A DNA stretch of 39,785 nt, from positions 1 through 39,785 of the forward strand of contig CANFVX010000002.1 in assembly GCA_947450495.1 (NCBI GenBank), in the 5' to 3' direction. The DNA comes from Gammaproteobacteria bacterium. GTDB lineage: Bacteria; Pseudomonadota; Gammaproteobacteria; Ga0077536. The translations under genes and the position numbers were made by a program. Shown piece after piece: positions 5,817-39,686 of this stretch. Below the pieces are notes generated by a model that saw nothing but the letters and a program-made list of their open reading frames with translations, ran no database searches and had not been told where the DNA came from. How positions within the stretch are numbered: the stretch's first letter is position 1; the number at the start of each line of letters is the position of its first letter.

Positions 5817-5820
<4 letters not shown>
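4246..5820 (-). CDS. xrtA: exosortase A fused to a C-terminal EpsI-family domain
   Basis: Start chosen at MTAPLSRVMELPV (ATG 5820, ATGA overlap with the upstream gene); the longer track ORF to 6264 is Arg-rich junk. Polytopic N-terminal half carries the exosortase catalytic signatures VTGCSGMRYL (Cys) and ANWFRAFGIVMIAH (Arg, His). About 200 soluble C-terminal residues follow one more TM segment, as in EpsI proteins. Confidence 0.9.
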
Positions 5821-7004
<1,184 letters not shown>

Positions 7005-7007
7005 CGT

Positions 7008-10014: not shown

Positions 10015-10026
10015 CACCACTCCCTT

Positions 10027-13984: not shown

Positions 13985-14047
13985 GAGAAAACTCCCGATA
14001 AAGCCGCCGTACCGTGTCAGTCCTTTGCAACGCCCGCAGGCGTCGGC

Positions 14048-14695: not shown

Positions 14696-14765
14696 CGAGC
14701 TTCTCCTTGTTGATTTTTTGCCGACCTTCAGGGGCTACGCGCTGGTGCGGTAACAACCCGGTGGT

Positions 14766-14783
14766 CTGGCCTTCACAGTGCCC
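14766..14783 (-). promoter_or_regulatory. candidate sigma54 -24/-12 promoter for the export/chain-length operon
   Basis: The minus strand reads GGGCAC-TGTGA-AGGCC (GG-N10-GC spacing), about 70 nt upstream of the export gene ATG (14695). The -24 element is good; the -12 element is GGC instead of TGC. Confidence 0.35.
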
Positions 14784-14850
14784 GTCGGCAGACCGGCGGG
14801 CCTTGATCTGCCTCAGCTGAAACGGTGTCGGTGCGGGGCTCAACGCAGAC

Positions 14851-17622: not shown

Positions 17623-17873
17623 CCTGTTCTCCTGAATGCAAAGCGCCGTAGCGCAGGATTTACCGCATGGGGCATGGAATCGGGCAGATCTGGATGGTGG
17701 CATGCAGGCCAGACGCTGCTACGCCAGCGCGCGTCCGGAGCCTGATGTCGATCAGGAAGACCGGTCAGGCCGCTCAGCCTGCGGTGTCCAGTTTCTTTAC
17801 AGCATGGCAAACGGCGCAGGACCAAGGATTTGGGGCAAAGCACCCATGGCGGAGGCGGTGTGGGGCTGCAAGC

Positions 17874-17892
17874 CTGTCAATCAATTTGACAG
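17874..17892. promoter_or_regulatory. perfect 7-5-7 palindrome, candidate enhancer (UAS) for a sigma54 activator
   Basis: CTGTCAA-TCAAT-TTGACAG, centred about 90 bp upstream of the -24/-12 element at 17968-17983. A T-rich tract (GCGCTTTTTTGCTGTTTTTCC, about 17920-17940) lies between them. Confidence 0.45.
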
Positions 17893-17967
17893 TGCAGCCG
17901 CCATCGAGGATTCGTGATTGGCGCTTTTTTGCTGTTTTTCCGCGATTCAACGCAGCAGGGTCGGCTG

Positions 17968-17983
17968 TGGCATGGAAGGTGCT
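17968..17983 (+). promoter_or_regulatory. sigma54 (RpoN) -24/-12 promoter of the PEP-CTERM protein gene
   Basis: TGGCAT-GGAAG-GTGCT versus consensus TGGCAC-N5-TTGCW, with exact GG-N10-GC spacing. Located 65 nt upstream of the ATG at 18048, which has a GGAG SD. A sigma54-dependent activator (prsR) is encoded in the same locus. Confidence 0.65.
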
Positions 17984-18047
17984 CAATGCTCAACAAGTTT
18001 CAGCGCCCTGCAGAAACCTCCACCACACTCATTGAGGAGTAAGCACG

Positions 18048-19079
18048 ATGAACAAAACACGGACGATAGGGGCATCTCTCACGGCGATCATCGCAATGAC
18101 CTATGGCGGCCTTGCCCACGCCATTCCCAAGCCAGGTGCCGTCGGCGACGCCTACCTTGAGCTGAGCAAGTTCTACATTCTCGCCGGTGACCACAAAGCG
18201 GGCGTGAGTGGCACTGTGCTTGATATCAAATCCCCCCTTAATCCGGCCGGCGCCATCACCTTGGGCCCGGTGAACACCACCGCCGAGGTGGCGGGTTCGC
18301 TGAACGGCGTCTCTACGCCGCTGAACAAGGTGCTGGTTGGTCTGGGCGCGCCATTCAGCATTAGTTCCTCGCTGGGTTCTGGTTACGTGCCCTACGTCCG
18401 GCTGACCGGCAATCCCGGACCGGCGGACTGGATCGGTGCCTCTACCTCGTCTTCGGGTGATGGCTTGGCGCTTGCCTCGCCGGTGAATGTGCCGGTGGAA
18501 TCGCAGGTGGCTCTCGCACACTACGGCTCCGACGCCGGCAGCTCTGCCTACCAGAACCTGCAAAGCAACTTCTCCTTCACCTTGGCGGCTGGTCAGTTGT
18601 TTGAATTGAGCTTTGATGCCGACGGCTACCTCCGCACGGCGCTGGGTCAAGACGGCATTGTTGCCAATGCGAAATACAACTGGACCGCCTCCGTTGATCG
18701 CATCAACAAAACAGGTCCGGTAACCCACATGATGACCTGGAATCCCGATGGTGAGGTCGGTAGTGGCTACTCCTCCTCGCTGTGCCACACCACCAAGACC
18801 GACCCCTTGGGCGGCGGCAAATTCGACTGTAACGAGTATGCCGATGCGTTCCTGATGAACGATGGACTGGGCACCAACGGCGGGCCCGGTGAAAGCATTA
18901 CCGACCCGACAAAAGGGTCGTTCGAAATGGAGCTCTATCTGGCGGCCGGCACGTATAACTTCACCATTCAGCACAATACGCATGCGGATGCCGCGATTGG
19001 CGTACCCGAACCCACCACGCTGGCCCTGCTCGGGATTGGCATGTTGGGCATGGGCGCCAAACGCCGTCGGAAAATCTGA
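18048..19079 (+). CDS. PEP-CTERM sorting-domain protein (predicted exosortase A substrate)
   Basis: Sec signal peptide (SLTAIIAMTYGGLAHA). C-terminus GVPEPTTLALLGIGMLGMGAKRRRKI has the canonical VPEP motif, TM helix and Arg cluster. The mature region is Gly/Ser/Thr/Asn-rich with no domain I recognise. Confidence 0.92.
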   Translation: MNKTRTIGASLTAIIAMTYGGLAHAIPKPGAVGDAYLELSKFYILAGDHKAGVSGTVLDIKSPLNPAGAITLGPVNTTAEVAGSLNGVSTPLNKVLVGLGAPFSISSSLGSGYVPYVRLTGNPGPADWIGASTSSSGDGLALASPVNVPVESQVALAHYGSDAGSSAYQNLQSNFSFTLAAGQLFELSFDADGYLRTALGQDGIVANAKYNWTASVDRINKTGPVTHMMTWNPDGEVGSGYSSSLCHTTKTDPLGGGKFDCNEYADAFLMNDGLGTNGGPGESITDPTKGSFEMELYLAAGTYNFTIQHNTHADAAIGVPEPTTLALLGIGMLGMGAKRRRKI

Positions 19080-19104
19080 TTGCGCACAGCGATGTGCTCT
19101 TGGG

Positions 19105-19131
19105 AAACCCGCTTCGGCGGGTTTTTCTTTT
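19105..19131 (+). terminator. rho-independent terminator
   Basis: AAACCCGC-TTCG-GCGGGTTT: a perfect 8-bp stem with a UUCG tetraloop, followed by TTCTTTT, 26 nt after the PEP-CTERM gene stop. Confidence 0.85.
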
Positions 19132-19162
19132 GCCGGTTGATGGGAGGGGAAGCGGCGTGGTG

Positions 19163-20035
19163 ATGTCAATCGCAGCGATGGCCCGCCTGATTGCGCGGGA
19201 AATGCTCGGTGCGCGGCAGCAGGCGCGCGGCCCTACGCCGCTTGCACTGCTCAGCGAGGAAACCGTGCTGGACGCAATGCGCGGTGAGGGGCGCGCCGAA
19301 GGCCGGACCGCAGCGGGCTATCTCTATCACACGGCGCGCATCTCGCAGGTCTTGCAGGGTCGCCGGCGCTGCCTCGATCTGGGCTGCGGCACCGGCGTCC
19401 AACTCCTGCAGGTGGCGGGCTTCAATCCTGAAGTCCGGTTTGTAGGGGTTGATCAGAGCGCGACGCTGCTCGCCGCCGCCGAGGAGGACGCCAGGCGCCT
19501 TGGGCTTACCAACGTGAGCTTTCTGCGGGCAGACATGACCGGTCTTGCCGAGTTTGAAACCCGCGGCTTCGACGCGGTGGTCTCGACGATGAGCCTGCAC
19601 TTTTTGGCGGATCGCCCGGCACTGAGGGCGGCACTACTGGAAATGGCGCGCATCGGCGGCGTGGATGCCGCGTTTTATCTTGAGGATTTTGCGCGGCTCA
19701 AATCGCCGTTATCGGTGGCGTTTTTTCTTGACCGCAATGCGCAAGCGGCGCCCGATCCGTTTGACGCGCTCTATCGCGCGTCGCTCGAAGCCGCGTTCAC
19801 GCTGGATGAACTTAAAACCGAGATCGCCCACGCCCTGCCGCGCGCGGCGATGCATGTGACCAGTCCGGTGCCGTTCCTGCTGGTCGCCCATACGCCGGCC
19901 GCGCCGCTGCCGACCGCCTTGCGCGCACAATTCCGCTCGGCACGCGCCAGCCTAAGCCCCACTCAAAGTGCAGATCTGGACGCCTTGCGGCGCGCCTTCG
20001 CGCTGGGCGAATGGCGGGCCGACCCGTTCCACTGA
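19163..20035 (+). CDS. class I SAM-dependent methyltransferase
   Basis: Motif I LDLGCGTGVQLL, plus acidic post-I and motif II-like segments (FDAVVSTMSLHFL). The track start 19094 lies inside the terminator hairpin. Start moved to ATG 19163; GTG 19157 is also possible, 9 nt after the GGAGGGGA SD. Confidence 0.8.
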   Translation: MSIAAMARLIAREMLGARQQARGPTPLALLSEETVLDAMRGEGRAEGRTAAGYLYHTARISQVLQGRRRCLDLGCGTGVQLLQVAGFNPEVRFVGVDQSATLLAAAEEDARRLGLTNVSFLRADMTGLAEFETRGFDAVVSTMSLHFLADRPALRAALLEMARIGGVDAAFYLEDFARLKSPLSVAFFLDRNAQAAPDPFDALYRASLEAAFTLDELKTEIAHALPRAAMHVTSPVPFLLVAHTPAAPLPTALRAQFRSARASLSPTQSADLDALRRAFALGEWRADPFH

Positions 20036-20055
20036 GGGCCTCGCTTTCAGGCCCT
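20035..20055. terminator. hairpin between convergent genes (possible bidirectional terminator)
   Basis: AGGGCCT-CGCTTTC-AGGCCCT, a perfect 7-bp stem spanning both convergent stop codons (20033-20035 and 20047-20049). No clear U-tract. Confidence 0.4.
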
Positions 20056-21180
20056 GTGGCGGGTATTCGCCAGATAGTAGTCGAGCACCCTGGACAGCAC
20101 GACGCGGGTATCCGGGCGCTCGATGCCCAGCGCCTGCAGGCGCTCGCGGGTGCGGGTGTTGTCGAACACCTGCGCGCTGCCGAGGTAATCGAGATACACC
20201 GGCAAGGTGGCGAGGGTGCGCTGCTGGGCCGCCGGCAGCGCGCGCGCCAGCAGACTCATCAACCACAGAAAATACGCGGGCGGGAGCGGAATCGAGGGCC
20301 ACCAGGGCAGGCGACCCTCACGGCGCAAACGCGAACGGACCGTGTCGCGTAATTCAGTCAGCGGCAGCGCGCCGATCGGCCCGGCGCATAAATGCCAGAT
20401 TTCGCCCGCGCTATCCGGGCTGCGCGAGGCCGCCACGATGGCGTGCGCCACAAAGTCATTGGCGACGATATCCAGCACCGTATGCCCGAGTGCCGGATAG
20501 CAGCCAAGCGTGCGACGCCCGCTCAGAAATTCGCAGATGAACTGGAAAATCTGGAAGTGCGGCGTGACGCCGGTGCGCGAATCGCCCACCACCATGCTCG
20601 GGCGATGCACCGTCAGCGGTAATCCGGCGGCGGCGGCTTCGCGCAGCAGCACTTCTGATTCGGCTTTGGCTTCCTCATAGGTGTTGTGAAACGCGCGCGG
20701 CTCATCCAGCCAGCGCTCCGGCAGCGGACCCTGCCAGCGTCCCCCTACCCCCACCGTCGAGACCGCCTCCAGTTTGCGGAATCCCACGCAACGCCGGGCG
20801 AGTGCAATCAGGGTGGCGGTGGGGACGACCGTGGTTTCGCGCGCGATGGCGAGCGACTGGTTCAAGCGCACGCTGGCGGCGCAATGCACGATATGCGTAC
20901 AGCCTTGCTCCAACTCATGCTGATCGGCGGCGCTCAAACCGAGCGCCGGGGCGCTGATGTCGCCCGCCATCGCGCGCAAACGATGTTCCAAAGCCCCCGC
21001 CGGCAGCTGCAGATAATGGGCGCGCCAGAACTGCTTGAGGGCGTTGAAGCGGTCGGCGATCGAATGCCCGTTGCGTGCTCTCAACAGCACCACCACTTCA
21101 ACCTCCGGCAGGCCGAGCAAGGCGGGGATCAGCGCGCCGCCCACCACGCCGCTAGCCCCCGTGACGAAGTAGCAATCCAT
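20047..21180 (-). CDS. SDR-family thioester/fatty acyl reductase (NAD_binding_4, 'male sterility' type)
   Basis: N-terminal Rossmann motif FVTGASGVVGGAL, catalytic Y-x3-K (NTYEEAK), and the HCAASV segment typical of terminal reductase domains and fatty acyl-CoA reductases. Confidence 0.8.
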   Translation of the reverse strand: MDCYFVTGASGVVGGALIPALLGLPEVEVVVLLRARNGHSIADRFNALKQFWRAHYLQLPAGALEHRLRAMAGDISAPALGLSAADQHELEQGCTHIVHCAASVRLNQSLAIARETTVVPTATLIALARRCVGFRKLEAVSTVGVGGRWQGPLPERWLDEPRAFHNTYEEAKAESEVLLREAAAAGLPLTVHRPSMVVGDSRTGVTPHFQIFQFICEFLSGRRTLGCYPALGHTVLDIVANDFVAHAIVAASRSPDSAGEIWHLCAGPIGALPLTELRDTVRSRLRREGRLPWWPSIPLPPAYFLWLMSLLARALPAAQQRTLATLPVYLDYLGSAQVFDNTRTRERLQALGIERPDTRVVLSRVLDYYLANTRHRA

Positions 21181-21189
21181 ACGCTGTCC

Positions 21190-23001
21190 TTAAAGTCCCA
21201 ACATCAGCAAATCCGGGGCGAGGGCTTCGCAAAACCGCTCGCCTGCTCTGGCGTCGAGCGCGGCGTAAAGCCGATCGAGCAGGGGTTGATAGCGCGCCTC
21301 CAGCGCCCAACGGCGCAGCTTGAGGGAAGGCGTGAGGCTTTGGTTGGCGACCGTCAGCGGGGTGAGCGAGACCAGCAATCCCGCCGGGTGCGAATAGCCG
21401 GGCAGCGCCGCGAGACTGGCCGGCACGGCCGCCGCCAGTCGTTCGGCAAGCTGCCGGAAGGCCGCGGCATTCGTGAGGTTTTCAGGCTGCGGATCGGCGA
21501 GTGTGAGCAGGGCCACCGGCGCCTTGCGGCCCGCCCCGAACACCACCACATGGTCAACGCCGGGCAACTGCTGCAACACGCTTTCCAACAGCACCGGCGC
21601 GATCTTGCGCCCGGTCGAGGTTTTAAAAATCTCGCTTTTTCGGCCTGCGATGCGCAGATAGCCCTGGGCGTCGAGCTGCCCCAAATCGCCGGTATGCAAG
21701 TAGCCCTCGGCATCCACGGCGGGCGTCGTGCTCGCAGCGTTGAGATAGCCGTGAAAAACGCCGGGGCCGCGCACCAGTATTTCGCCGTCGTCGGCGATGG
21801 TGATTGCGTTAGGCGCGAGCACACGGCCTACTGTCCCCGCCTGATAGTCATCCAGCCGGTTCAGCGCCACGGGCACGATGTTTTCGCTCAGGCCGTAGGC
21901 TTCCAGCACCGGCAATCCCAGCGCCTGCAATTGTTCGAGCACCGCCAGGCCACAGGGCGCAGAGCCGCTGAGCATGGCGCGCACCTCACCGCCCACCGCG
22001 GCCCGCAGGCGCCGCAGCACCAGCCAATCTGCCGCCCAGTGCTGACACCGCAGGCAGGCGCCTGGCGGCTCGCCCGCGCGGTTTGACGCCGCCACGCGCG
22101 CCCCGACATCAACGGCCCAGGCCACAAGCCGTTGCTGCTGCGGCGAGCCCTCACGGCCCGCAAGGGCAAGACCCTGGGCCAGTTTTTCGTAGAAGCGCGG
22201 CACGCCAATCAACCAGTGCGGCCGGGCGATGGGCAGTATCTGGAGCAAGCGACGGGGCTCGGACAGCAACCAGCTCTGGGCCCCTGCCGCCACCGCGCAA
22301 AAGTTGATCACGCGCTGAAAGAGTCCGGACAACGGCAGCCAGCACACCAGTCGGTCGTCGGGATGAATCTGCGGAAAGGCGTGAAGGATCGCGTCCACCG
22401 CCACCGCACACTGCGCATGGGTGTAGACAATGCCACGCGGGTGGCCGGTGCTGCCGGAGGTGAACACGATGAGCGCCGGCGCGTTGGCGTTAAGGCCTTC
22501 GGCCGGCGCGACGCCCGGACTTGCCAGCAACGCCGACCATCGCCACCAGGCTTGCGTGACGCCCGCCGGTGCCGCCTCATCCGAGAAACAGATCACCCCC
22601 CGTAAGTTCGCGCGGGATGCGGCGGGCAGCCGCAGAAAGTTCGCGCTGTCGACCACCGCAAGCATGCCAATGCCGGCCGCGAGTAGCGTCTCGTCGAGCC
22701 TCTCGGCCGAATCCTGCGGGTCCAGCCCCACCACGACCGCCCCTGCCATGAGTGCCGCCACCTGCGTGAGTTCCCAGGGCAAATCGTTCGGCGCCAGAAT
22801 CCCGAGCCGCGTGCCGGGCGTCAGGCCGGCCGCCACCAGCGCGGCGGCAAGCGCTTCTGCTCGATGCAGGACCTCCAGCCAGGTGAGGCCCAGCCATTCG
22901 TCTTGCAGCCAATAGCGGAAAGCGATGAGGTCCGGCGTACGGCGCGCGCGCTCACGGTAGTAGTCGGGCAAGGTCCAGTGGCTGCCCGTGGCGGTAATCA
23001 C
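21190..23001 (-). CDS. AMP-dependent synthetase/ligase (acyl-CoA or acyl-AMP ligase family)
   Basis: AMP-binding core motif IVFTSGSTGHPRGIVYTH. Later motifs EAYGLSE, LHTGDLG and GRKSEIFKTSTGRKIAP. GTG start overlaps the upstream stop (GTGA at 22998-23001). Confidence 0.88.
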   Translation of the reverse strand: MITATGSHWTLPDYYRERARRTPDLIAFRYWLQDEWLGLTWLEVLHRAEALAAALVAAGLTPGTRLGILAPNDLPWELTQVAALMAGAVVVGLDPQDSAERLDETLLAAGIGMLAVVDSANFLRLPAASRANLRGVICFSDEAAPAGVTQAWWRWSALLASPGVAPAEGLNANAPALIVFTSGSTGHPRGIVYTHAQCAVAVDAILHAFPQIHPDDRLVCWLPLSGLFQRVINFCAVAAGAQSWLLSEPRRLLQILPIARPHWLIGVPRFYEKLAQGLALAGREGSPQQQRLVAWAVDVGARVAASNRAGEPPGACLRCQHWAADWLVLRRLRAAVGGEVRAMLSGSAPCGLAVLEQLQALGLPVLEAYGLSENIVPVALNRLDDYQAGTVGRVLAPNAITIADDGEILVRGPGVFHGYLNAASTTPAVDAEGYLHTGDLGQLDAQGYLRIAGRKSEIFKTSTGRKIAPVLLESVLQQLPGVDHVVVFGAGRKAPVALLTLADPQPENLTNAAAFRQLAERLAAAVPASLAALPGYSHPAGLLVSLTPLTVANQSLTPSLKLRRWALEARYQPLLDRLYAALDARAGERFCEALAPDLLMLGL

Positions 23002-24071
23002 GGCGTGAGTACCGGATCGTAGGCGCCGCGCGCTTCGGTGATCCGCAAGGATTCAGCGCTCAGCCCCAGCCAGTTCATTTGCTGAATCACGTTGTAGCCC
23101 AGCCCCACGCGCCACCGCACCATGGCGTCGACCACCGGTCCCATCACGCGCCACAGCGCGAGACTCGCCTTGCCTTCCCGAATCAGCGCGGAGAACTCCG
23201 GCGCATAAGGGTTGTAGCCAAAGTGTTTGAGATCGGAATACATCAGCAGCCAGTTGATGGGGTAATTGCTGAAGACCGGGCTCGCGTGCCGCGCACTCTT
23301 CACCAGCCCCAGCGCCACCACCTCGCGCATCACGGCCGCCTGGTCGTAAGGCCAGGCGTGAAACGGCGCGAGGTAGCGAGGAAAGCGGACGTTCGGCGGC
23401 CACTGGAGCGGATTGAAAAACCGCGCGAGGTCGGCCGCATCAAACAAGCCACTGCGCAGCAGCTGCGGGGGCGTCCAGTCGGTCTGCTCAATCAGCTGGC
23501 GTGAGAACTCATAGCGCATGCGCTCGGGCTCCGGCTGACCAGGCGAGTACCCCGCCATCACCAGCGGAATGTCTTTTTCCAGCGCGAGCCTGATGGCGTC
23601 GCCCTCAAACAACGGAGCGTAGACATAAGACACGGTGTAGACCGCGCCGCGCGCTTCCTGATGGCGCAAGAGATAGGCAAACAGACGACGGTAGAACTCG
23701 TCCGGCGGGGAATAGCTGATGTGATCGATCGACAGTCGCGCCAGGGTGTGCCGAATGTTGTCCCAGGCAATCGCGGGCAGATTCACATCCACGGTAAAGG
23801 CGAGCACCCGCAGGCGATGCTCCACCTTGAGCTTGTAGAGCAGCAGCGCGCTGTCTTTGCCACCGCTGAACGGCACCAGCACGTCGTATTGTCCGGTGCC
23901 GCGCGTGCTGGCCAGGGTGACCGCCAGATCGTCGGCAAACCCCCGCCGCTGAATTTCGGCCGTCTCCAGCAGTGCGGGCGCGAACTCGCGGCAATAAGCG
24001 CACACGCCGCGACGGTCAATCACCGCGCCCGGCGCGGCCCCGGGGAGCAAACAGCGTCGGCAGCGTTTCAT
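22998..24071 (-). CDS. Zn-ribbon + PP-loop ATP pyrophosphatase (N-acetyl sugar amidotransferase-like)
   Basis: N-terminal CRRC...GVCAYC four-Cys ribbon followed by the PP-loop LVPFSGGKDSALLL. This architecture matches the WbuX-type N-acetyl sugar amidotransferase family as I recall it. Confidence 0.7.
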   Translation of the reverse strand: MKRCRRCLLPGAAPGAVIDRRGVCAYCREFAPALLETAEIQRRGFADDLAVTLASTRGTGQYDVLVPFSGGKDSALLLYKLKVEHRLRVLAFTVDVNLPAIAWDNIRHTLARLSIDHISYSPPDEFYRRLFAYLLRHQEARGAVYTVSYVYAPLFEGDAIRLALEKDIPLVMAGYSPGQPEPERMRYEFSRQLIEQTDWTPPQLLRSGLFDAADLARFFNPLQWPPNVRFPRYLAPFHAWPYDQAAVMREVVALGLVKSARHASPVFSNYPINWLLMYSDLKHFGYNPYAPEFSALIREGKASLALWRVMGPVVDAMVRWRVGLGYNVIQQMNWLGLSAESLRITEARGAYDPVLTP

Positions 24072-24093
24072 GCCAATACCTCAGGTAAGTCAA

Positions 24094-25026
24094 TCAACAT
24101 GTCGGGCTGCCGCCGGTCAGCGCGTTGAGCAGCGCCTCCGCCTGTTGCAGATTGCAATAGCGCAGGCGCCACGCGTCGACGGCGTCAGTCAGCGCGCCAG
24201 CGCGTTCGAAGGCCTCCTGGCCCAGCAAGGTGTAATTGAAGGCGTTCTGCGTGAGCTGGGAAAAACATTCCGCCGGATGCAGCGCGCTGAATTCGGGGCT
24301 CGCGTCCGCGTCGTACTGCGGAAACACCACCCAGCGCGGGCGCGCGGTCTGATCCATGCGGCGCAGATGATCGAGCGGCGGCGAGAGATGCGAGACGGTG
24401 CCTTTGCGGGTGCCCGGAATGCAGGGGCCAAAAGTGGCGGCGGGCACGCGCTCCCGAATCAGCGCAATGGATTCGTTTTTGAGCGGAATCAGGCGCGGCA
24501 GCGGGTCGATGGTCAATTCGCGATCGCGAATAAGCGTGAATTCATCCGACAACAGGCGCCAGCCCCGATGGATGAGCCAGGCGCAGAGCGTGCTTTTACC
24601 CGCGCCCGGTTGGCCGGGCAGCAAGAGCGCGTGACCGTTGCGCTCGATCACTGCGGCGTGGAGCATCAGGTAGTGATGGGCGCGACTCGCCACACACCAG
24701 TTGATGGCCCACTCAAGATGCGCCAGCAGCGCACCCGGCGCGCACTCGGTAAAGGGCACGCCGTCTTCCAGCCCGAGGCAGAGCGGTCGTCGCAACGCGC
24801 GCGCGACCAGACTCTGCCCGAGCAAGCGGATCTCGCCGTCGGCGAAGCTGTCATCCGGCGCGAGGGGGTAGTCGGGATAGTAATCGTAGAGGCATTGCGC
24901 GAGTCGTCTATCGCGGCCCACAAGGCGCATCACAAAGGGCCCTAGCCTGAGATTGAGCCCGTCCGCGCAACGGGCGTGCAGTTCGCTGAAGGAGAGCCGC
25001 TTGAGCGTGGGCATGGGCGCACTCAT
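24094..25026 (-). CDS. HprK-related kinase (type A), HPr kinase/phosphorylase C-terminal-like P-loop protein
   Basis: P-loop LLLPGQPGAGKSTLCAWL followed by LLSDEF, as in the HPr kinase catalytic domain. 310 aa. ATGA overlap with the PqqD-like gene (25023-25026). Confidence 0.8.
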   Translation of the reverse strand: MSAPMPTLKRLSFSELHARCADGLNLRLGPFVMRLVGRDRRLAQCLYDYYPDYPLAPDDSFADGEIRLLGQSLVARALRRPLCLGLEDGVPFTECAPGALLAHLEWAINWCVASRAHHYLMLHAAVIERNGHALLLPGQPGAGKSTLCAWLIHRGWRLLSDEFTLIRDRELTIDPLPRLIPLKNESIALIRERVPAATFGPCIPGTRKGTVSHLSPPLDHLRRMDQTARPRWVVFPQYDADASPEFSALHPAECFSQLTQNAFNYTLLGQEAFERAGALTDAVDAWRLRYCNLQQAEALLNALTGGSPTC

Positions 25027-25328
25027 CGTGACGGGATCGGCTCGACGAGACCCAGACTGCTCATCACGCGCAGCGTGTCCGCGATCGCCTCACGGGTCGC
25101 ACTATCCGGCTCCGCGCCATGCTGTCGCAGCAGCGCGTCCTCGATCGCATCCAGCGACTGCGGCCCCGCCGCGAGCGCCGCTAACACGCTCACGGCGGCC
25201 TGATTCAAAAAATGCGTCTGCCCGGAGCGCATATCAAAAGCGAAATACGCTTCTTCCCACCGCTGCCAGAGCAGGTCTGCCGCCGGATCCGCCCGCCAGC
25301 GGGGTTCATGTGCGGGAGACTCTCGCAT
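25023..25328 (-). CDS. PqqD-family protein (RiPP recognition element-like peptide chaperone)
   Basis: 101 aa. YFAFDMRSGQTHFLNQAAVSVLAALAAGPQSLDAIEDALLRQHG...IADTLRVMSSLGLVEP follows the PqqD/RRE winged-helix pattern: a beta-strand that binds substrate, then a three-helix bundle ending in GLV/GLI. Confidence 0.78.
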   Translation of the reverse strand: MRESPAHEPRWRADPAADLLWQRWEEAYFAFDMRSGQTHFLNQAAVSVLAALAAGPQSLDAIEDALLRQHGAEPDSATREAIADTLRVMSSLGLVEPIPSR

Positions 25329-25904
25329 TTAGCCGGCCCTGCCCCAGAGCGATTTGAGGCACGCACCACTGAGGCTGGTGACCAGCGCATCCGGCGGCGT
25401 GCGCGGCTCGCCCACGGCCAGCACCGAGCCGTCCCGCGCGCTGAAATGCACGATCGCCAGCCCTTCGCGACAAGGCTTGGCGGACAAGCTGCGCTTGAGA
25501 TCCAGCGAGCGGCTGTTGCCCGGCGCGTTGATGAACGGAATTTCGGCATCGCCGACGGGTTCACCGGTCGCAACGTAGCGCCAGCACGCTTGCTGGTCGC
25601 GGCTCCCGATCCCTTCGAAATATTGCGCGACGCCTGAGGCGCTATAGCCGGCAATCTGGCCGCGCCGGTCTTTCTGCGCAATGAGTTGGTCGTAGCACGC
25701 CACACGCTCGCGGAAGAACTCGTCCTTTGCAAACGCGAGAGGCCGACACGGTCGCTCACTCGGCGGCTGGCCGCAGGCGAGACTGGTGCGCGCCGCCGCC
25801 TGTGCGGCAGTGCTGCCCAAAGTCATCACCGCCGGCAAGGCCAGCGTCGTGCCTTTGAGAAAACGTCGACGACGTTCATTGGGCTGAGTCGTTGGCTTAT
25901 CCAT
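25329..25904 (-). CDS. Tat-signal secreted protein of unknown function (6 Cys)
   Basis: Start at MDKPTTQPNERRRRFLKGTTLALPAVMTLGSTAAQAAA (ATG 25904, GGAG SD 8 nt upstream); the track ORF to 26204 is an Arg-rich extension. Twin-arginine motif RRRFLK plus h-region plus AQA. The mature part of about 150 aa has 6 Cys and matches no family I recognise. Its stop TAA abuts the PqqD ATG with zero spacer. Confidence 0.7.
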   Translation of the reverse strand: MDKPTTQPNERRRRFLKGTTLALPAVMTLGSTAAQAAARTSLACGQPPSERPCRPLAFAKDEFFRERVACYDQLIAQKDRRGQIAGYSASGVAQYFEGIGSRDQQACWRYVATGEPVGDAEIPFINAPGNSRSLDLKRSLSAKPCREGLAIVHFSARDGSVLAVGEPRTPPDALVTSLSGACLKSLWGRAG

Positions 25905-26023
25905 CAGCACCACTCCAAAGGGTAAGAAGAGGATTCGGGGTTTTCTTGCGCCATGCCAAGTGGCGTGACTCGCAACAATGATTTCCTTGCGCGACGCCAG
26001 CGGGCCGCTGTAGCGGCGCTTGA

Positions 26024-27163
26024 ATGCCGACCACGCCACGCCGTCGCCAACTGAACTGGAGGGATCCCTTGCGCAAACAATTTCTGCTGGCGCTGCGCCA
26101 GCCCGCACTGCTCGCCAACCACGACCAACGCGCCTGGCAACACTTGCTGGCACTGGGCCGCCTGCACGCCGTTTCCGGACGGTGGCACGCCCAACTGGAA
26201 GCACTGGATTGGTTGCCGCAGGTGCCTACTCCGGTGCGCCGTCATCTGTGGTCTGACCATTGCGTGGCCAGCGCGCACGAGCGCCGCGCACGCTGGGAAA
26301 TCGACCGTCTGAGCAGAGTGCTCAATCCCACCGGCATCCCGTGGGCATTGCTCAAAGGCGCGGCGTACCTCGCGGCCGATCTGCCAAGCGCGCGCGGTCG
26401 CCTGTTGGCGGATGTGGATGTGCTGGTGCCTCACGCGGAGCTCGCCCGGGTGGAGCGTCTTCTGCACCAGCAAGGCTGGCACGACACCCCTCACGATGCT
26501 TATGACGATCGGTACTACCGCGAATGGATGCACGAACTCCCTCCTTTGCAACACGGCACCCGTGGCACCACGCTTGATGTTCATCACACCCTCCTGCCCC
26601 TGACCGATCCGCTGCATCCCGATGGCGGCGAATTGCTGAGCCGCCGGGTGGCCGCCAGCGGCGAGACCTGCGTGCTCGCCCCGGCCGATCTCGTGCTGCA
26701 CAGCGTGCTTCACGGGTTTCATGCGGGCGACCTGCAGCACTGCTTGCGCGATGTGCTGGACGTCTACGAACTCATGACCCACTTCGTTTTGCAGTCAGGC
26801 GATGCGTTCTGGATCTCGCTGGTTGACCGCGCTTTGAGACTACGCGCCGTGCGCGCCCTGCGAATTGCGTTGAGTCAGGCTGAAGGACATTTCGAGTTGG
26901 CCGTGCCGGCGTTCGTCAAACGCGAACTCCGACAGGCCGATCGCGGGCTCACGCCGGTGGCCTTGCTTGCGCAGTTGATGAACCAGCTGGTGGTGCCGGC
27001 CTTGCCGCCGGCGCGGATGTCGCGCATCGCGCATCGCGTGCTGAGCGTGCGCACCCATCTGCTGAAAATGCCGCTGCGGCGTCTGGTCCCGCACGCCCTC
27101 CACAAGACCTGGCAGAAGTGGCGTCCGGATACCGGCGCCGCGCCCACCGTGGTGGTGAAATAG
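26024..27163 (+). CDS. nucleotidyltransferase family protein (NTP_transf_5 / 'uncharacterised nucleotidyltransferase' type)
   Basis: LLKGAAYLAADLPSARGRLLADVDVLVPHAELARVERLLHQQGW ... HELPPLQHGTRGTTLDVHHTLLP matches the pattern of this family (Pol-beta-like DxD, later HH motif). Divergent from the Tat-protein operon. The start codon is not certain. Confidence 0.75.
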   Translation: MPTTPRRRQLNWRDPLRKQFLLALRQPALLANHDQRAWQHLLALGRLHAVSGRWHAQLEALDWLPQVPTPVRRHLWSDHCVASAHERRARWEIDRLSRVLNPTGIPWALLKGAAYLAADLPSARGRLLADVDVLVPHAELARVERLLHQQGWHDTPHDAYDDRYYREWMHELPPLQHGTRGTTLDVHHTLLPLTDPLHPDGGELLSRRVAASGETCVLAPADLVLHSVLHGFHAGDLQHCLRDVLDVYELMTHFVLQSGDAFWISLVDRALRLRAVRALRIALSQAEGHFELAVPAFVKRELRQADRGLTPVALLAQLMNQLVVPALPPARMSRIAHRVLSVRTHLLKMPLRRLVPHALHKTWQKWRPDTGAAPTVVVK

Positions 27164-27169
27164 CGTCGC

Positions 27170-27904
27170 TCAGGTCGGGCTTCCCGCGAGGTTGCGCTTG
27201 ATGATGTAGAGCAGGCCGATGAGGTCGTCCGATAATCCCTGCTCGAACTCCGAGCCCTCCAGGCGATAAGGGATGCGCTGGCCGTGATGCTCAACGGGCG
27301 CACCGATTTGTTCAAACAGGATCCCGTAGGCGCGGAGGCGACGCGCCAAACGGGGCTCCATCAAAGCGAATACCCGTTCCACCTGGCGCCCTAGCGCGAG
27401 CGCGGCAGCACCGACATACAAGCCTGCGGCAATATGGGGGAAGCCGCGTCGTTCAACGCTCAGATTCGGATGGTCACCGTTCGACTCGCTGACCGGCGAC
27501 AGCTTTTCTTTCCCGCGTCGGCGAAATTCGCCAATGACCGCAACGCGGGAGATTTCCGCCGAGGTCTTGCGCCACAGGGCACCGTGGTGCTGACGCATGG
27601 CCTCGGCTGCGGCCGGCGCAAGAGGCTCAAACGGAAACGCTTGTAAGGGATCGAGAGGGTCGGCCAGCACCAGACGCAGGCAGCCGATGAAGCGCGCGCT
27701 TGCCCGGTGCCGCAAGAGGACAAATATCGCGCGGCGATCGAAGCTGTCCGACTCTTCGGCGAAATTGCCCACCGCCGTCGGCTCCCAGCCCAATTCCTGC
27801 GCGTAGACCTGATAGCGCAAGCGAAAGACTTCATTGCGCAATTCAGGCGTCGTGGCTTCTACCACTTCGAAATAGCGTGGGAAATCGCAGACCCCTTCAA
27901 CCAT
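27170..27904 (-). CDS. PEP-CTERM/exosortase system-associated acyltransferase (GNAT fold, FeeM / N-acyl amino acid synthase / LuxI-like)
   Basis: N-terminus FEVVEATTPELRNEVFRLRYQVYAQELGWEP is the signature of this family. GAGGA SD. Lies 24 nt downstream of the prsR stop on the same strand. Confidence 0.82.
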   Translation of the reverse strand: MVEGVCDFPRYFEVVEATTPELRNEVFRLRYQVYAQELGWEPTAVGNFAEESDSFDRRAIFVLLRHRASARFIGCLRLVLADPLDPLQAFPFEPLAPAAAEAMRQHHGALWRKTSAEISRVAVIGEFRRRGKEKLSPVSESNGDHPNLSVERRGFPHIAAGLYVGAAALALGRQVERVFALMEPRLARRLRAYGILFEQIGAPVEHHGQRIPYRLEGSEFEQGLSDDLIGLLYIIKRNLAGSPT

Positions 27905-27928
27905 CCCTGGTTCCTCACGGCCATCGCG

Positions 27929-29269
27929 TCAATGCAGGCCGTATTTCTTGATGAGGTGATAAACCGTGGGGCGACTCACCCCAAGCACATCGGCTGCCTT
28001 GCCGATCTGTCCATGGCTCGCGGCCAGTGCTAACTGAATCGCGCCCGCCTCGGCTTCGTCTCGCACTTCGCGCAAGGTCCTGAAGCCATTCGCCACGGGC
28101 AACTCGAGTTCGAGATCCGCCGCCTCGATCACGAGATGGTCGGCCATGATCACGGCGCGTTTCACCCGGTTCTCGAGTTCCCGCACGTTACCCGGCCAGT
28201 CATGGGCTTCGATGGCAGCGAGGGCTGAAGGACTGAAGTCCCGCACCTGCGCGCCATAAAGTTCACGGAAGCGGCTGAGCAAGGCGCGCGCGATGAGGAT
28301 TGCGTCGCCGGGACGCGCCCGCAGCGGCGGAATCGCGATGGATAATTCGCTCACGCGGTAGTAGAGATCTTCGCGAAACAGGCGCTCGGCCATGAGCGTG
28401 CGGAGGTCTTTGTGGGTGGCGCAGATAACCCGCGTATCCACCGCAATTTCCTCACGTCCCCCCACGCGTTCGATCACGCGCTCCTGCATGAAGCGCAACA
28501 GCTTGGCCTGCAGACTCAAGGGCAAATCGCCCATTTCGTCGAGAAAGAGCGTGCCGCCGTCGGCGTACTCGAGCTTGCCGCGGGTTTGTCGCACGGCGCC
28601 GGTAAACGCGCCGCGCTCGTAGCCAAACAGTTCGCTTTCCAGCAGTTGTTCGGGGATCGCGGCGCAGTTAATCGCCACGAAGGCCTGCGCGTGGCGCGGG
28701 CTTTGTTCGTGGATGGCGCGCGCCAGCACTTCCTTGCCGGTGCCGCTCTCTCCTTGCAGCAGGACGGTGGCGCTGGTGGGCGCCAGCCGCTCGATGCGGC
28801 GGCAGACTTCAAGCATCGAAGCGCTGGCGGCGATAAGCCCGGTGCAGGCATTCCGCTGCGCGGCGATGAGCTGCTGGTTTTCGCTTTCGAGCGCGGCAAG
28901 ACGCTGCGCGCGGGCGATGATCAGCCGCAGTACGTCCGGATCTACCGGCTTCTCATAAAAGTCGTAAGCGCCCAGCGCCACCGCCCGGATGGCGACTTCG
29001 CGATCATCGTTGCCGGTCACCACAATGACCTTGGTGCTGGGCGCCGCGCGGAGAATTTCGGACAGGGCGAGCAGACCTTCCGAGGCATTGGCCGGGTCCG
29101 GCGGCAAGCCCAAATCCAGCGTCACCACCGGCGGCTGCCAACGGCGCACAGCGTCCAGCGCCGAGGCGCGGTCGGTCGCGAGCGACAGTTCGTATTCCGA
29201 CAAGGCCCACTTGAGTTGGGTGAGCACGCCCGGATCGTCGTCAACCAGCAGGAGTCGTGGCGGCGTCAT
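27929..29269 (-). CDS. prsR: PEP-CTERM-box response regulator, sigma54-dependent transcriptional activator
   Basis: Start at MTPPRLLLVDDDPGVL (index 75 of the track ORF; ATGA overlap with the prsK stop). REC domain, AAA+ sigma54-interaction domain (GESGTGKEVLARAIH, ELFGYERGAFTGA) and C-terminal Fis-type HTH (AADVLGVSRPTVYHLIKKYGL). Confidence 0.92.
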   Translation of the reverse strand: MTPPRLLLVDDDPGVLTQLKWALSEYELSLATDRASALDAVRRWQPPVVTLDLGLPPDPANASEGLLALSEILRAAPSTKVIVVTGNDDREVAIRAVALGAYDFYEKPVDPDVLRLIIARAQRLAALESENQQLIAAQRNACTGLIAASASMLEVCRRIERLAPTSATVLLQGESGTGKEVLARAIHEQSPRHAQAFVAINCAAIPEQLLESELFGYERGAFTGAVRQTRGKLEYADGGTLFLDEMGDLPLSLQAKLLRFMQERVIERVGGREEIAVDTRVICATHKDLRTLMAERLFREDLYYRVSELSIAIPPLRARPGDAILIARALLSRFRELYGAQVRDFSPSALAAIEAHDWPGNVRELENRVKRAVIMADHLVIEAADLELELPVANGFRTLREVRDEAEAGAIQLALAASHGQIGKAADVLGVSRPTVYHLIKKYGLH

Positions 29270-31368
29270 GCGTGCGCCACCGCCGGCGGCAAAGCGTGCG
29301 CTCGATCGAGCGGCAGGCTGATCCGGAAAGTGGTACCGGCCCCCGGCGCGCTCACCACCGACAACTTCCCGCCCGCCGCGCGCACCACGTGCAGACTTTC
29401 GTAAACCCCCATCCCCATGCCTGCTTTTCCTTTGGTGGTCGCAAACGGTTTGAACAACTGCTCCTGCACGAACGCTTCGCTCATCCCGCAACCGGTGTCC
29501 TCAATGCGAATCACGGCGCGGTCGTCGCTGCGAGAAAGTTCCACCCGAATCGACCCGGTAGCGGGCGTCGCGTCCTGCGCGTTTTGCAGCAGGTGCTCCA
29601 GCACGGCGGTGAGCCGTTCCGCCGCGCCGTGGACGGGCAGCGCCTGCGCATGGGTGATGAATTGGGGCTGCGGTAGTCGCGCTTTGACTTGCTCCACGGC
29701 CGAGCGCGTGACCGACACCAAATCGCAGACTTCCGTTTGAAAGCTCTCCGGCACCTGACGAAACGCGCTCAGCACGCGGGAGAGCTTGGTGGTGGCGTCT
29801 TGTACGGTGCGCAGGGCGTCGTCCACGAAGTCCTGATTGTGGCGATGGCGCTCGGCGTTGCGATTGACCAGCATCAGTTGGGCCAGAACGTTCTTGAGGT
29901 CATGCACGAGAAAGGCCGAAAGCCGGTTAAAAGCGTCGAACTGCCGGGCCTCCGCCAGCGCATCGGAGGCGCGGAGCAAGGCGAGATAGCCGGCCGCCTG
30001 ACGACTCATCGTGCGCAGCAGTCCGCGATCCTCAGGGGTCATGCCCGATTCCGATCGGCGATCACCCAGCAGCATCAGCGCGAGTAACTCGTTCTGGTGA
30101 ATGAGGGGCACCAGTGCCCAGGCCCGCGGCATCTCCAGTAACCAGCCGGGCAACAGATTCTCCGCGTCCAGCGTGCTTCTGGCCGCTTCTGCCCGCAGTT
30201 CCAAGGCGCCGTCATCGTTGGCAAAGCGCTTCAGCAAGGGATGGTCTTCCGCCAATTCGGCGTCGCGCGGGGCGGCGATCACCCACTGGGCCACGCTTAA
30301 AAAATTGCCCGCAGGCCCCTTCTGCCACAGCACGGCGCCCGTGCTGTCCATCACATCGGCAAAGGCCCTCAGCAAATTCTGGCGAAAATCGAGCGGATTC
30401 TGATCAAGCTGCGCGAGCCTTGCGGTGAACGACATCCACGCAGATTGATAGTCGTGTCGATGCGGATAGAAGTGCCGCGCGAGAAAATCCTTCACACCTG
30501 AGCGCAGGCTGGCGGAGGCCAGCAGCGAGACCATCACCAACAGTGCGAGGGAGCTCAATACAATTCGCAGCGCCCCGCCCCAACTACCGCCGAATACTTT
30601 GACGTAATAGCCGGCGATCGCCATGAACAGCAGATAAAGGCCGGCGGCCGACATCACCGTGACGTGCAGCGCGGCCTGTCGGGAAAGCCGAGGCGCCTGC
30701 GTCAGATGACGACACCGCATGGCGCTGATCGCAATCAGCGGCACCGCAAAAGCGTTCACGATGCTTCTGGCGGTCCACCAGTCGGGGTCGATCTGGCCAA
30801 ACAGCAGGCCGTCGGCATACAGCGCAAAGTCATACAGCAGCACGGAGCCGAGACCGAAGCCCAGATGCTTTACCGACCAGCGGGACTCATCGCGAGTGTT
30901 GCGATAGAGCTGCTCGATGAGCACCAGCCCCAACACCGACTGCAACAGAAACCCCACACGCACAATGCCCGCAACGCCCGGCCCCAAGGGTGACCATGAG
31001 CTCAGCGCCAGCGCGAGCAAGCCGCACAGCAGGCCTACGATCAGGCTGAAGCTGCGACTCAGGCCTTGCAGAAAGGATTCGAAACCCGCGCTGGCGCCCG
31101 TCTGTTCCAAGGCCGCAACGAGCACCCGGAACCACAGCAGGTCGCGCAACAGTTCAAGCCATTGCAGCACCACCGCCAGCTTGAGTGCGCCGTCGTCATA
31201 AGGCGCGCAGGTCTGCACGAGCAGCCAGCAGGCCGTCGCGGCGGCGGCAGGGATGAGCGCGCCGTTGAGCCTCGAACCCCGGAGCACGGTCAGCAGCAAG
31301 AGACAGAGCGCGCCAAACGCGAGGACCCCGACCGCGCCAAACAGGGACACCAGATCGGGCAGCGTCAT
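29266..31368 (-). CDS. prsK: PEP-CTERM system sensor histidine kinase
   Basis: About 300 aa of multiple TM segments, a GAF-like middle region, a DHp H-box (FLVHDLKNVL) and HATPase_c motifs (IEDTGCGMS, GMGMGV). ATGA overlap with the upstream sugar transferase. Confidence 0.9.
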   Translation of the reverse strand: MTLPDLVSLFGAVGVLAFGALCLLLLTVLRGSRLNGALIPAAAATACWLLVQTCAPYDDGALKLAVVLQWLELLRDLLWFRVLVAALEQTGASAGFESFLQGLSRSFSLIVGLLCGLLALALSSWSPLGPGVAGIVRVGFLLQSVLGLVLIEQLYRNTRDESRWSVKHLGFGLGSVLLYDFALYADGLLFGQIDPDWWTARSIVNAFAVPLIAISAMRCRHLTQAPRLSRQAALHVTVMSAAGLYLLFMAIAGYYVKVFGGSWGGALRIVLSSLALLVMVSLLASASLRSGVKDFLARHFYPHRHDYQSAWMSFTARLAQLDQNPLDFRQNLLRAFADVMDSTGAVLWQKGPAGNFLSVAQWVIAAPRDAELAEDHPLLKRFANDDGALELRAEAARSTLDAENLLPGWLLEMPRAWALVPLIHQNELLALMLLGDRRSESGMTPEDRGLLRTMSRQAAGYLALLRASDALAEARQFDAFNRLSAFLVHDLKNVLAQLMLVNRNAERHRHNQDFVDDALRTVQDATTKLSRVLSAFRQVPESFQTEVCDLVSVTRSAVEQVKARLPQPQFITHAQALPVHGAAERLTAVLEHLLQNAQDATPATGSIRVELSRSDDRAVIRIEDTGCGMSEAFVQEQLFKPFATTKGKAGMGMGVYESLHVVRAAGGKLSVVSAPGAGTTFRISLPLDRAHALPPAVAHA

Positions 31369-32762
31369 CGGGCGCCTTTACCCCACAGCACCACCTGTAG
31401 GGTCAGACAGAGAATATTCAGGTCGAGAAACAGGCTGTAGTTCTTGAGGTAGTAGAGGTCGTATTGCAGCTTTTGACGTGCGTCTTCGCTGGAGGCGCCG
31501 TAGGGAAAGCAAATCTGCGCCCAGCCCGTGATGCCGGGCTTCACCTGATGCCGCAGGGCGTAGAACGGAATCTCCTGCTCCAATGCGCTGACAAACGCCG
31601 GGCGCTCTGGACGCGGCCCAACGAGACTCATATCCCCCAGGAGCACGTTGAACAATTGCGGCAGCTCATCGAGGCGGGTTTGGCGCAGGAAGCGTCCGAG
31701 ACGGGTTACGCGTTGGTCAGCCTGAGTGGCCCATACCGCCTTGCCGTCGACTTCGGCGTTTTGCCGCATGCTGCGAAATTTATAGAGCTGAAATGGCTTG
31801 CCGTGGAGCCCCACCCGCTCCTGGACGTAAATCACCGGGAAGCCGCTTTCCAGAAAGATCGCCAGCGCCACAATGACCATGATGGGTAAACCGACACAGA
31901 GCATGAGCAAGGCGATGCTCACATCAAGCAGGCGCTTTGACCCCTGCAGCAACACAGCACCGGTATAGCCATCGGCAAAAATAAAATCGCCGGCCTTGAT
32001 GCCATCAAGACTGATCCGAACCTGCTGTTGTTCAAGAAACTGCGAATCGTCGAGCACCCGTATGCCGCTCATCTTGCACTGGAGCAGTTCCGCCTCCGGC
32101 AGCTGGCTACGTCGGTCATCCAGCGCGACGACGAGCTCGTCAACGTCGAAGCGTTTGACCAACTCCGGTAAGGCGCCGGTGGAGACAATGGTGCGCGCGG
32201 GGTCGATGACCGCAGGGCCTGCGCCGACATCCACGAAGCCGACGATGACAATGCCGATGCGGTCGCTGGCGCGCCGCAGGCCTTCAAGGCGCTTCGCCCG
32301 TTCCCCAACTCCCAGCACCAGCACCCGGCGACGCAGGTGAGACTCCGTGCTCCGGCTAAAGACCAGCCTGGCGCTGAGCAAGCCGATGAAGGCCAACAGG
32401 GCCGCAGGCAGCAGAAGCCGCCGCTCAGGCAGAAAACTCGGGACGCCAGGACGAATGCAAGCAATCAGCGCCAGACCGATGAGAAAGCCAATGATCAGGC
32501 GAGCTGTGGTCTGGGCCGGCAGATCGCGCGGGTCTCGTTGATAACAGCCGGTGGCCAACAGGCCCGTTAACATCGCCAGCGTGAAACCCATCGCCGAAGG
32601 GATCAGGCTGGACAACGCGCCCGCCTCGCCTCGCGGCAGGCCATTGCTGGCCAACAGCGCAAACAATCCGGTGACCAGCAAGGACACCAACAAGATCAGC
32701 GCTTCCGCAGTGACGGTGACCAGTAGCAGCCGGGGCACATAGTGTCGAAAAATTCTGAGCAT
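31365..32762 (-). CDS. priming sugar-phosphate transferase (bacterial sugar transferase, EpsB-like, PEP-CTERM system type)
   Basis: [14 protein letters not shown] is the N-terminus typical of the family (ATG 32762; the track start 32780 is GTG). 4-5 N-terminal TMs. C-terminal catalytic domain [22 protein letters not shown]...[14 protein letters not shown]. Confidence 0.88.
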
Positions 32763-32970
32763 CCGTTCCCACCCTTTCACGCGCCCTGAGGGCGTGGATT
32801 AATTTTTCGTGAGAGGGATGATGCACAGGGCCAGACTGGCGCCCTATGCGCGAAGTCATGTTTAGGGTGCGGGTTTCAGGGGAACAAACGATGGCGCGCG
32901 ATGGGGCGACTACGTCTGAGAAAGTACGGCGCGCACCTGGTGGCAGGCGCGCGTCGCTCGGGCTGAATGA

Positions 32971-38609: not shown

Positions 38610-38627
38610 GGGAGTTTCGCAATAAGC

Positions 38628-39686
<1,059 letters not shown>

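Follow-up and report, generated by a model that had tools for sequence, protein, structure and literature searches.

In the clusters of the lasso peptides paeninodin and pseudomycoidin, genes for a PqqD-like RiPP recognition element (RRE; RiPP, a peptide made by ribosomes and modified post-translationally), an HprK-like kinase and a nucleotidyltransferase lie beside the precursor gene; the HPr-kinase homologue phosphorylates a serine of the precursor, and the nucleotidyltransferase adds a hexose to that phosphate (PMC8498205). The precursors of bufferins carry a general secretion (Sec) signal peptide instead of a classical leader, and the authors of that work suggested that the signal peptide belongs to the recognition sequence (PMC11626156, PMC12452194). 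Here we analysed a 39,785-nucleotide (nt) stretch of the genome of a Gammaproteobacteria bacterium (contig CANFVX010000002.1 of assembly GCA_947450495.1; the whole stretch is called the window below), in which a gene for a 191-amino-acid protein with a signal resembling those of the twin-arginine translocation (Tat) pathway, here called gene X, heads an operon that also encodes a PqqD-like protein and an HprK-like kinase. The best reading of this system is that an RRE would guide the modification of a signal-bearing precursor.

The window pair resembles the HPr-rel-A system of NCBIfam, in that PqqD_rel_X (TIGR04353) and HprK_rel_A (TIGR04352) both exceed their cut-offs, are adjacent and have the usual neighbour, a nucleotidyltransferase of family PF14907 (NTP_transf_5). 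The catalogue, however, names enzymes only, whereas the upstream gene X matches no NCBIfam or Pfam model, and our literature search found no paper on the HPr-rel-A system and none in which a natural twin-arginine signal is connected with an RRE or RiPP. Unlike lasso clusters, the X operon and cassette contain no lasso cyclase, B2 protease or ATP-binding cassette (ABC) exporter in a Pfam and NCBIfam scan, and, unlike lasso precursors, X ends in glycine rather than serine, bears a Tat-like leader and belongs to a family whose cargos, the parts that follow the leader, reach 340 amino acids. With the bufferins and oxazolins, X shares its place as a precursor encoded by the first gene, a general-secretion signal, a folded, cysteine-containing core of small-protein size and the lack of a dedicated exporter or protease (PMC11626156, PMC12452194). 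Those systems, however, use a Sec signal and an oxidative, multinuclear non-haem iron-dependent enzyme (MNIO, DUF692) with DUF2063, and convert cysteine to thiooxazole, whereas the X system has a kinase and a nucleotidyltransferase; neither MNIO (DUF692) nor DUF2063 is among the Pfam and NCBIfam matches of the X operon.

An HprK-related P-loop protein, ScmC, is likewise paired with a PqqD-like chaperone in the SynChlorMet cassette, a putative peptide-modification cassette. Its radical SAM/SPASM genes, however, are not in the X cassette, and the window kinase matches ScmC weakly (TIGR04249, E = 4e-9), at 36 bits, far under the cut-off of 125 bits; weak PF27840 matches were found at the loci of relatives. 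TorD, DmsD and NapD are cytoplasmic proofreading chaperones that bind the Tat signals of cofactor enzymes until maturation. By analogy, a cytoplasmic protein encoded next to X would hold the X signal until X is mature; PqqD/RRE proteins, however, are of another fold family, and the maturation of X, which matches no cofactor family, would be covalent.

Gene X and its four-gene module

The 191 codons of X, read from the minus strand of the window (translation starting MDKPTTQPNERRRRFLKGTTLALPAVMTLGSTAAQAAARTSLAC), contain what an earlier, sequence-only reading of this DNA had reported: a twin-arginine (RR) motif, a hydrophobic (h) region, an AQA site and six cysteines. Residues 18-38 (G18-A38) are uncharged, with an AxA site at A34-Q35-A36, and the cysteines (C44, C53, C70, C107, C144 and C182) are all past the signal, in a mature part of about 155 residues with the C-terminal end ...WGRAG. 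The same reading had described a zero spacer to the PqqD-like gene and a place for X at the head of the operon with its own GGAG sequence, and both descriptions were borne out: the X stop codon TAA (25329-25331) abuts the ATG at 25326-25328, and, because a 119-nt gap parts X from the divergent NTP_transf_5 gene, X is the first gene of a minus-strand operon, with GGAG 8 nt from its ATG. The operon runs X, PqqD_rel_X, HprK_rel_A, PP-loop, ligase and reductase, with spacings of 0, -4, +22, -4 and +9 nt. A longer in-frame GTG start at 26204 was rejected, as it would overlap the divergent gene and the homologues give it no backing.

X had been called an orphan, which it is not; it belongs to a conserved family heading a four-gene module. 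That X is a real gene is shown by its 23 relatives in a word-indexed search (74-295 amino acids), by 151 representative clusters at 50% identity matched by a profile of the relatives' alignment (E ≤ 1e-3) and by retained synteny. One homologue, P0001, is 96% identical to X and likewise has 191 amino acids. The relatives have in common the motif RRRF[LV]KG..LA.PA[VI][ML]TL.S...A.A followed by a cysteine, and their public records, from Gammaproteobacteria metagenome-assembled genomes, read only 'hypothetical protein'; the weaker profile matches mostly cover profile positions ~10-90 only, which is the signal region. In agreement with the earlier remark that no motif could be recognised, Pfam and NCBIfam gave no match to X at E ≤ 0.01, and at E ≤ 10 they gave sub-threshold Tat-signal matches only; none of their models matched two other cargo types of the family either. 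Searched against PDB sequences, the family profile returned only noise (E ~0.6), and Foldseek found no match to the X model in the PDB (best E-value 1.7). The earlier reading had allowed that X might belong to a known cofactor-binding Tat substrate family, and none of the Pfam, NCBIfam, PDB sequence and Foldseek searches placed it in one. The client family appears undescribed; the enzyme part is catalogued but uncharacterised.

The linkage between X and the enzymes was examined from both sides. Nine X proteins, ranging from 54% identity down to similarity in the leader only (P0005, P0020, P0022, P0012, P0079, P0140, P0163, P0110 and P0126), were looked up, and all nine genes lie directly upstream of PqqD_rel_X, with HprK_rel_A next and PF14907 present where the contig continues. 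The converse test was anchored on HprK and is independent of X similarity: relatives of HprK_rel_A at 33-56% identity gave 8 reference-genome and 80 metagenome loci, and counts were based on the non-redundant HprK_rel_A loci that extend 1 kb or more upstream of HprK, 61 in all. A leader-bearing gene is directly 5' of PqqD/HprK in 54 of the 61 and just 3' of the nucleotidyltransferase in two (L070 and L091), and another two have a sub-threshold RR-bearing open reading frame (ORF) at the upstream position (L071 and L093). Homologues of X thus adjoin PqqD- and HprK-like genes wherever context exists (nine of nine in the forward direction, 54 to 58 of 61 in the HprK-anchored loci), as the sequence-only reading had proposed to check, and none was found outside a cassette. 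A 39-position hidden Markov model (HMM) of the leader, run on the 5057 ORFs of at least 40 amino acids in the HprK-anchored loci, matched 70 ORFs, all 70 inside cassettes, and in the 39.8-kb window it matched X alone; in the metagenome loci ORFs were called from the longest start, which leaves it uncertain how far RR lies from the true start.

PF14907 is present in 66 of the 70 non-redundant loci with room for it, on the same strand directly after HprK in 58 and divergent upstream in 8, and is missing in 4. X, PqqD_rel_X, HprK_rel_A and NTP_transf_5 are therefore a conserved four-gene module of near-obligate linkage, in which the third universal enzyme is the nucleotidyltransferase, rather than the ligase or reductase encoded downstream. 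The zero spacer of the window is not conserved, X-to-PqqD spacings in other loci ranging from -25 to +186 nt. Carriers of the cassette are Gammaproteobacteria, Sedimenticola and one Phycisphaeraceae (Planctomycetota) genome. To judge from their sequences, the kinase and the nucleotidyltransferase look active, with catalytic motifs kept: the P-loop PGAGKSTL (Walker A) and GWRLLSDE (SDE) are invariant in the kinase alignment A2, and the PF14907 protein retains the nucleotidyltransferase motif hGG...DVDVLV. Among solved structures, the kinase has P-loop-level matches only and the PF14907 protein has none. The window PqqD_rel_X also has a weak PF05402 match and a weak lasso PqqD match.

A conserved leader on variable cargo

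In an alignment of 21 close X relatives (A1), residues 12-44 have 18 invariant positions out of 33, compared with 23 out of 147 in residues 45-191; the leader is conserved above the exported part, which is the reverse of ordinary secreted proteins. What the family shares is a region of about 39 N-terminal residues: RR, P-x3-T-L, S, A and then Cys. Across 222 unique sequences the leader columns are R 98%, R 100%, F/L 90%, K/R 86%, G 72%, P 92%, T 95%, L 91%, S 76%, A 70% and 86% (the AxA site) and C 82%. Since the profile that found many of the members includes the leader, these percentages are inflated; the HprK-anchored set does not share this bias. The mean pairwise identity over 53 cassettes is 38% for the leader versus 27% for PqqD.

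The cargos, in contrast to this leader, fall into at least three unrelated types and many singletons, and range from 16 to 340 amino acids. In the HprK-anchored set, the types are C..S[LIF] (n = 12, including the window), W...IV.YL..T (n = 21) and ..CP[LG] (n = 5), and the others (n = 26) include Cys-free, His-rich peptides of 16-54 amino acids together with cargos of up to 340. The signal is conserved and the exported part interchangeable; therefore, the family displays the pattern of a leader-guided substrate. The earlier description of the client as protein-sized holds for the window member alone: beside its ~155 residues stand relatives of X with core lengths of 16-60 amino acids, and the family as a whole spans 16-residue peptides to 340-residue proteins. 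Members of the X subfamily have the C-terminal motif ..SC[YLWM].S[LFI] in common, and the short relatives terminate with ..SC[YLW].S[FL].

The shortest clients were found at L024 (1097-1351), L033 (4339-4680), L034 (1481-1912), L038 (6-266) and L062 (170-424). Histidine, serine, threonine and proline abound in their cores of 16-36 residues, of which ..SPAHQSHHP and ..HHAPGHNPPGQG.. are examples; Cys is absent from several, and they look like metal-binding peptides. Two leader-bearing genes occur in each of L077 (3849-7721) and L080 (429-2412), and in L091 (4696-9056) a leader-bearing gene separates two units, the HprK_rel_A gene being present twice in tandem. Several clients may thus share one cassette.

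Whether the leader is a Tat signal was judged on motifs and on models. Residues R12-R13-R14-F15-L16-K17 of X fit the consensus (S/T)-R-R-x-F-L-K, except that the preceding residue is R and not S or T. The claim of a textbook Tat signal is accordingly upheld by the motif, the uncharged h-region and the AxA site, but not by two curated models, on both of which X falls under the cut-off. In a rough control with 11 canonical Tat signals, all 11 were positive on the leader HMM (3.6-12.1 bits), compared with 14-65 bits for family members. The family scores lie far above those of canonical Tat signals, and therefore the leader carries an extra, family-specific signature, P-x3-T-L. In sequence, it looks like a Tat signal plus this element.

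The AlphaFold2 model of X is rich in beta strands, with a predicted local distance difference test (pLDDT) score of 70.9 overall and above 90 for residues ~70-160; its core is confident over residues ~55-170. Such a core agrees with a folded domain, for which Tat would be required if X acquires its modification or its fold in the cytoplasm. Over residues 177-184, in contrast to the core, the model has low confidence. Candidate modification sites are T28, S31 and S41 at the junction, and T176-S177...C182...S185 in the invariant, poorly ordered tail; the tail (residues 176-188) may be modified or may pair with C44 in a disulfide.

Proposed route and alternatives

We consider it probable that X is a dedicated client whose Tat-type signal doubles as the leader for PqqD, and which would be modified in the cytoplasm and then exported by Tat. 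The sequence-only reading had already suggested a client of this kind, and the analysis supports that suggestion in part. We favour a leader-guided client on a general export route because the module encodes an RRE-type protein, a common N-terminus is found on unrelated products, the adjacency is strict and the cassette has no protease or exporter. In the proposed route, the X N-terminus (RRRFLKG..LALPAVMTL.S..A.A...C) would be both a twin-arginine export signal and a leader bound by the PqqD-type chaperone. The P-loop HprK-like kinase would modify the X protein held in the cytoplasm, probably by O-phosphorylation of Ser or Thr, and the enzyme of nucleotidyltransferase fold would probably elaborate the phosphate, in the manner of the homologous pair that acts on lasso peptides. 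Finished X, which in the window member would be folded, would leave via Tat, and signal peptidase would cut off the leader at AQA; the use of Tat and signal peptidase would explain a module without a protease or exporter gene. The window clade has four more enzymes (a PP-loop protein, an AMP-ligase, a reductase and a methyltransferase) joined to its module, which is placed inside an XrtA/PEP-CTERM exopolysaccharide locus.

Several results weigh against this route. An X-type gene is absent in 3 of the 61 loci (L012, L041 and L069), of which L069 ends short of the position that the gene occupies in L070 and L091. Outside the leader and junction, no Ser or Thr is conserved across all cargo types, and the C-terminal residue of X is Gly, whereas lasso kinases use a C-terminal Ser. 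The partial Mantel correlation of the leader is r = 0.23 with PqqD and r = 0.38 with HprK; leader-PqqD co-variation is no stronger than that between leader and HprK, which is co-inheritance and not contact. A fusion of PqqD with the leader, modelled by AlphaFold2 from the single sequence and hence folded without an alignment, reached a pLDDT of 52.7, with the leader below 50. X scores 14.7 bits on PF10518 (cut-off 22.7) and 12.6 bits on TIGR01409 (cut-off 16.7); both are short models that miss many true Tat signals. The inflation of the leader percentages belongs with these points.

A broader claim is tentative, and we would put it forward with some doubt: that there is a widespread class of ribosomal products, short peptides as well as proteins of full size, whose leader for a PqqD-type element would be a specialised twin-arginine signal, that the HprK-like kinase and PF14907 enzyme would phosphorylate and further decorate the product in the cytoplasm, and that Tat and signal peptidase would take over from the usual dedicated exporter and protease of RiPPs. 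In that case PqqD_rel_X would count as a Tat proofreading chaperone of a new kind, and the cassette as a portable 'modify, then export' module for almost any cargo fused to the leader.

We regard it as unlikely that X is instead a Tat-exported periplasmic protein working alongside the cassette, for example as a receptor, a carrier or a structural partner of the PEP-CTERM/exopolysaccharide pathway, with the enzymes acting on something else such as a PEP-CTERM protein, a small unannotated peptide or a glycan. At least 11 loci, window included, encode PEP-CTERM proteins close to the cassette, a complete XrtA locus encloses the window cassette, and the cargo types have no common modification site, all of which would suit such a partner. 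However, a partner should have a conserved working domain, yet the exported parts are unrelated, some being peptides of 16-50 amino acids, and the conserved portion is the one that would be cleaved away. Moreover, a PEP-CTERM gene is absent from the fetched flanks of most cassettes, and no further conserved small ORF exists within X-PqqD-HprK, the spacer being zero in the window and a 66-71-amino-acid ORF of three related loci (L001, L004 and L099) having no counterpart there.

HPr kinase/phosphorylase proper is a reversible regulatory enzyme, and the residues common to all cargo types, the Thr and the Ser of the leader among them, are confined to the leader, the cargos being otherwise unrelated. 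These points would agree with a kinase that reversibly phosphorylates the leader (T28, S31) to gate or time Tat export, with PqqD as a proofreading chaperone like TorD or DmsD and the exported product unmodified. We think this quite improbable: we know of no precedent for a phosphorylated Tat signal, the nucleotidyltransferase is not obviously needed for a switch, yet is present in nearly all loci with room for it, and the closest characterised homologues put stable modifications on peptide products (PMC8498205).

Least probable, in our view, is a RiPP-type leader without any export role, the product staying inside the cell or leaving by another route after the action of an unlinked protease: the sub-threshold Tat scores, the P-x3-T-L element in more than 90% of members, which exceeds known Tat targeting needs, and family HMM scores far over those of canonical Tat signals speak for it, but the RR pair is 98-100% invariant and followed by [FL][LVI][KR], the Tat consensus itself, it is accompanied by an uncharged stretch of 12-20 amino acids, by a residue after T-L that is often basic and by an A-x-A site, canonical Tat signals are all positive on the leader HMM, many cargos have paired Cys suited to an oxidising compartment, and the cassette has no protease or transporter genes.

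The surrounding locus and what the module would mean

Table 1. Features of gene X and its neighbourhood, in window coordinates
Feature	Coordinates	Strand	Evidence or remark
Gene X, first operon gene	25329..25904	minus	191-aa ORF, syntenic homologues, no Pfam/NCBIfam family
Leader, Tat-type signal peptide (putative), residues 1-36 up to AQA	25797..25904	minus	Alignment A1; leader HMM 56.3 bits on X
RRRRFLK twin-arginine motif, residues 11-17	25854..25874	minus	Direct reading of sequence
Conserved C-terminal tail TSLSGACLKSLWG, residues 176-188	25341..25379	minus	T176, S177, C182, L183 and G188 invariant in A1
GGAG Shine-Dalgarno sequence, 8 nt before X ATG	25913..25916	minus	Direct reading of sequence
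PqqD_rel_X, HPr-rel-A system PqqD-family peptide chaperone (RRE-type)	25023..25328	minus	TIGR04353 54.7 bits, cut-off 35
HprK-related kinase A, 4-nt overlap with PqqD stop	24094..25026	minus	TIGR04352 311 bits, cut-off 200
NTP_transf_5 nucleotidyltransferase, divergent in window	26024..27163	plus	PF14907 E=4e-47
PP-loop, WbuX-like 357-aa protein, clade-specific	22998..24071	minus	Weak TIGR03573, 78.9 bits, cut-off 203
AMP-binding acyl or aryl ligase, clade-specific	21190..23001	minus	PF00501 E=1.5e-58
Thioester-reductase-like NAD-binding protein, clade-specific	20047..21180	minus	PF07993 E=4e-45; TIGR01746 121.7 bits
Class I S-adenosylmethionine (SAM) methyltransferase, convergent neighbour, clade-specific	19094..20035	plus	Methyltransf_31 and Methyltransf_25 matches
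Divergent intergenic region, X to NTP_transf_5	25905..26023		119 nt; mechanical ORFs only
EDSAP-1 family PEP-CTERM protein, adjoins methyltransferase	18048-19079	plus	True PEP-CTERM protein

Around the window cassette lies a complete XrtA/PEP-CTERM exopolysaccharide locus (553-19079 and 27170-32780). This comprises exosortase A with an EpsI domain, three stp glycosyltransferases, O-antigen-ligase-like and FemAB-like proteins, a deacetylase and an ATPase; an outer-membrane protein, a tyrosine kinase, a chain-length determinant and an export protein; and PrsT, PrsK, PrsR, a TIGR03013 sugar transferase and a TIGR03694 acyltransferase. X itself is without the PEP-CTERM hallmarks (C-terminal PEP motif, transmembrane helix and basic cluster). 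Besides the window, L001, L004, L010, L026, L028, L042, L046, L048, L049 and L061 have PEP-CTERM proteins encoded no more than a few kb from the cassette. Further along, on the minus strand, housekeeping genes adjoin the locus (32971-34803 and 36240-39644), a GlmS-like ORF, assigned by sequence, being followed by pheT and pheS.

Genes for the PP-loop protein, AMP-ligase, thioester-reductase-like protein and methyltransferase (19094-24071) are translationally coupled to the window cassette, and most cassettes are without them; among the cassettes compared, they are confined to the window-like loci L001, L004 and L099, in all three of which the methyltransferase gene is syntenic. Their products may modify X further or may supply the transferred group. 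A scan of 19900-27300 found no sigma-70-like promoter, and the 52 sigma-54-like matches in the window, below the shuffled mean of 62, are no more than chance.

A hidden small precursor in the window was considered and rejected, given the zero X-PqqD spacer and an upstream gap that holds mechanical ORFs only. The conserved ORF of 66-71 amino acids mentioned above (MREAHPL.KRV.ETLD.G.D.DLF ... SFG.AL.GLLGS; L001 8231-8446, L004 8280-8480 and L099 790-990, all on the minus strand) sits between a PrsR-like regulator gene and the nucleotidyltransferase gene; it has no homologue in the window, where the TIGR03694 acyltransferase gene fills that position.

Two loci contain a lone HprK_rel_A gene with no PqqD gene or leader-bearing gene upstream: L012 (5965-6858), where its neighbours are type II secretion pseudopilin genes, and L041 (3720-4703), where they are pyrR/ruvX-like housekeeping genes. 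L009 (contig CAMATU010000038.1), from a metagenome-assembled genome that bears the name Klebsiella pneumoniae, contains the cassette and a homologue of X (30% identity); that name looks doubtful for such a locus.

If the proposed route is true, the uncharacterised HPr-rel-A enzymes (TIGR04352, TIGR04353 and PF14907) would gain a defined substrate family, and their chemistry would become testable. The use of a signal peptide as a leader has so far been shown only for the Sec-dependent bufferins, and a Tat version would suit the export of material already modified or folded. A short leader that drives the modification of cargos of 16 to 340 residues could also serve protein tagging or modification. 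The recurrent PEP-CTERM/exosortase neighbours would tie the module to the exopolysaccharide and flocculation loci of environmental and wastewater bacteria.

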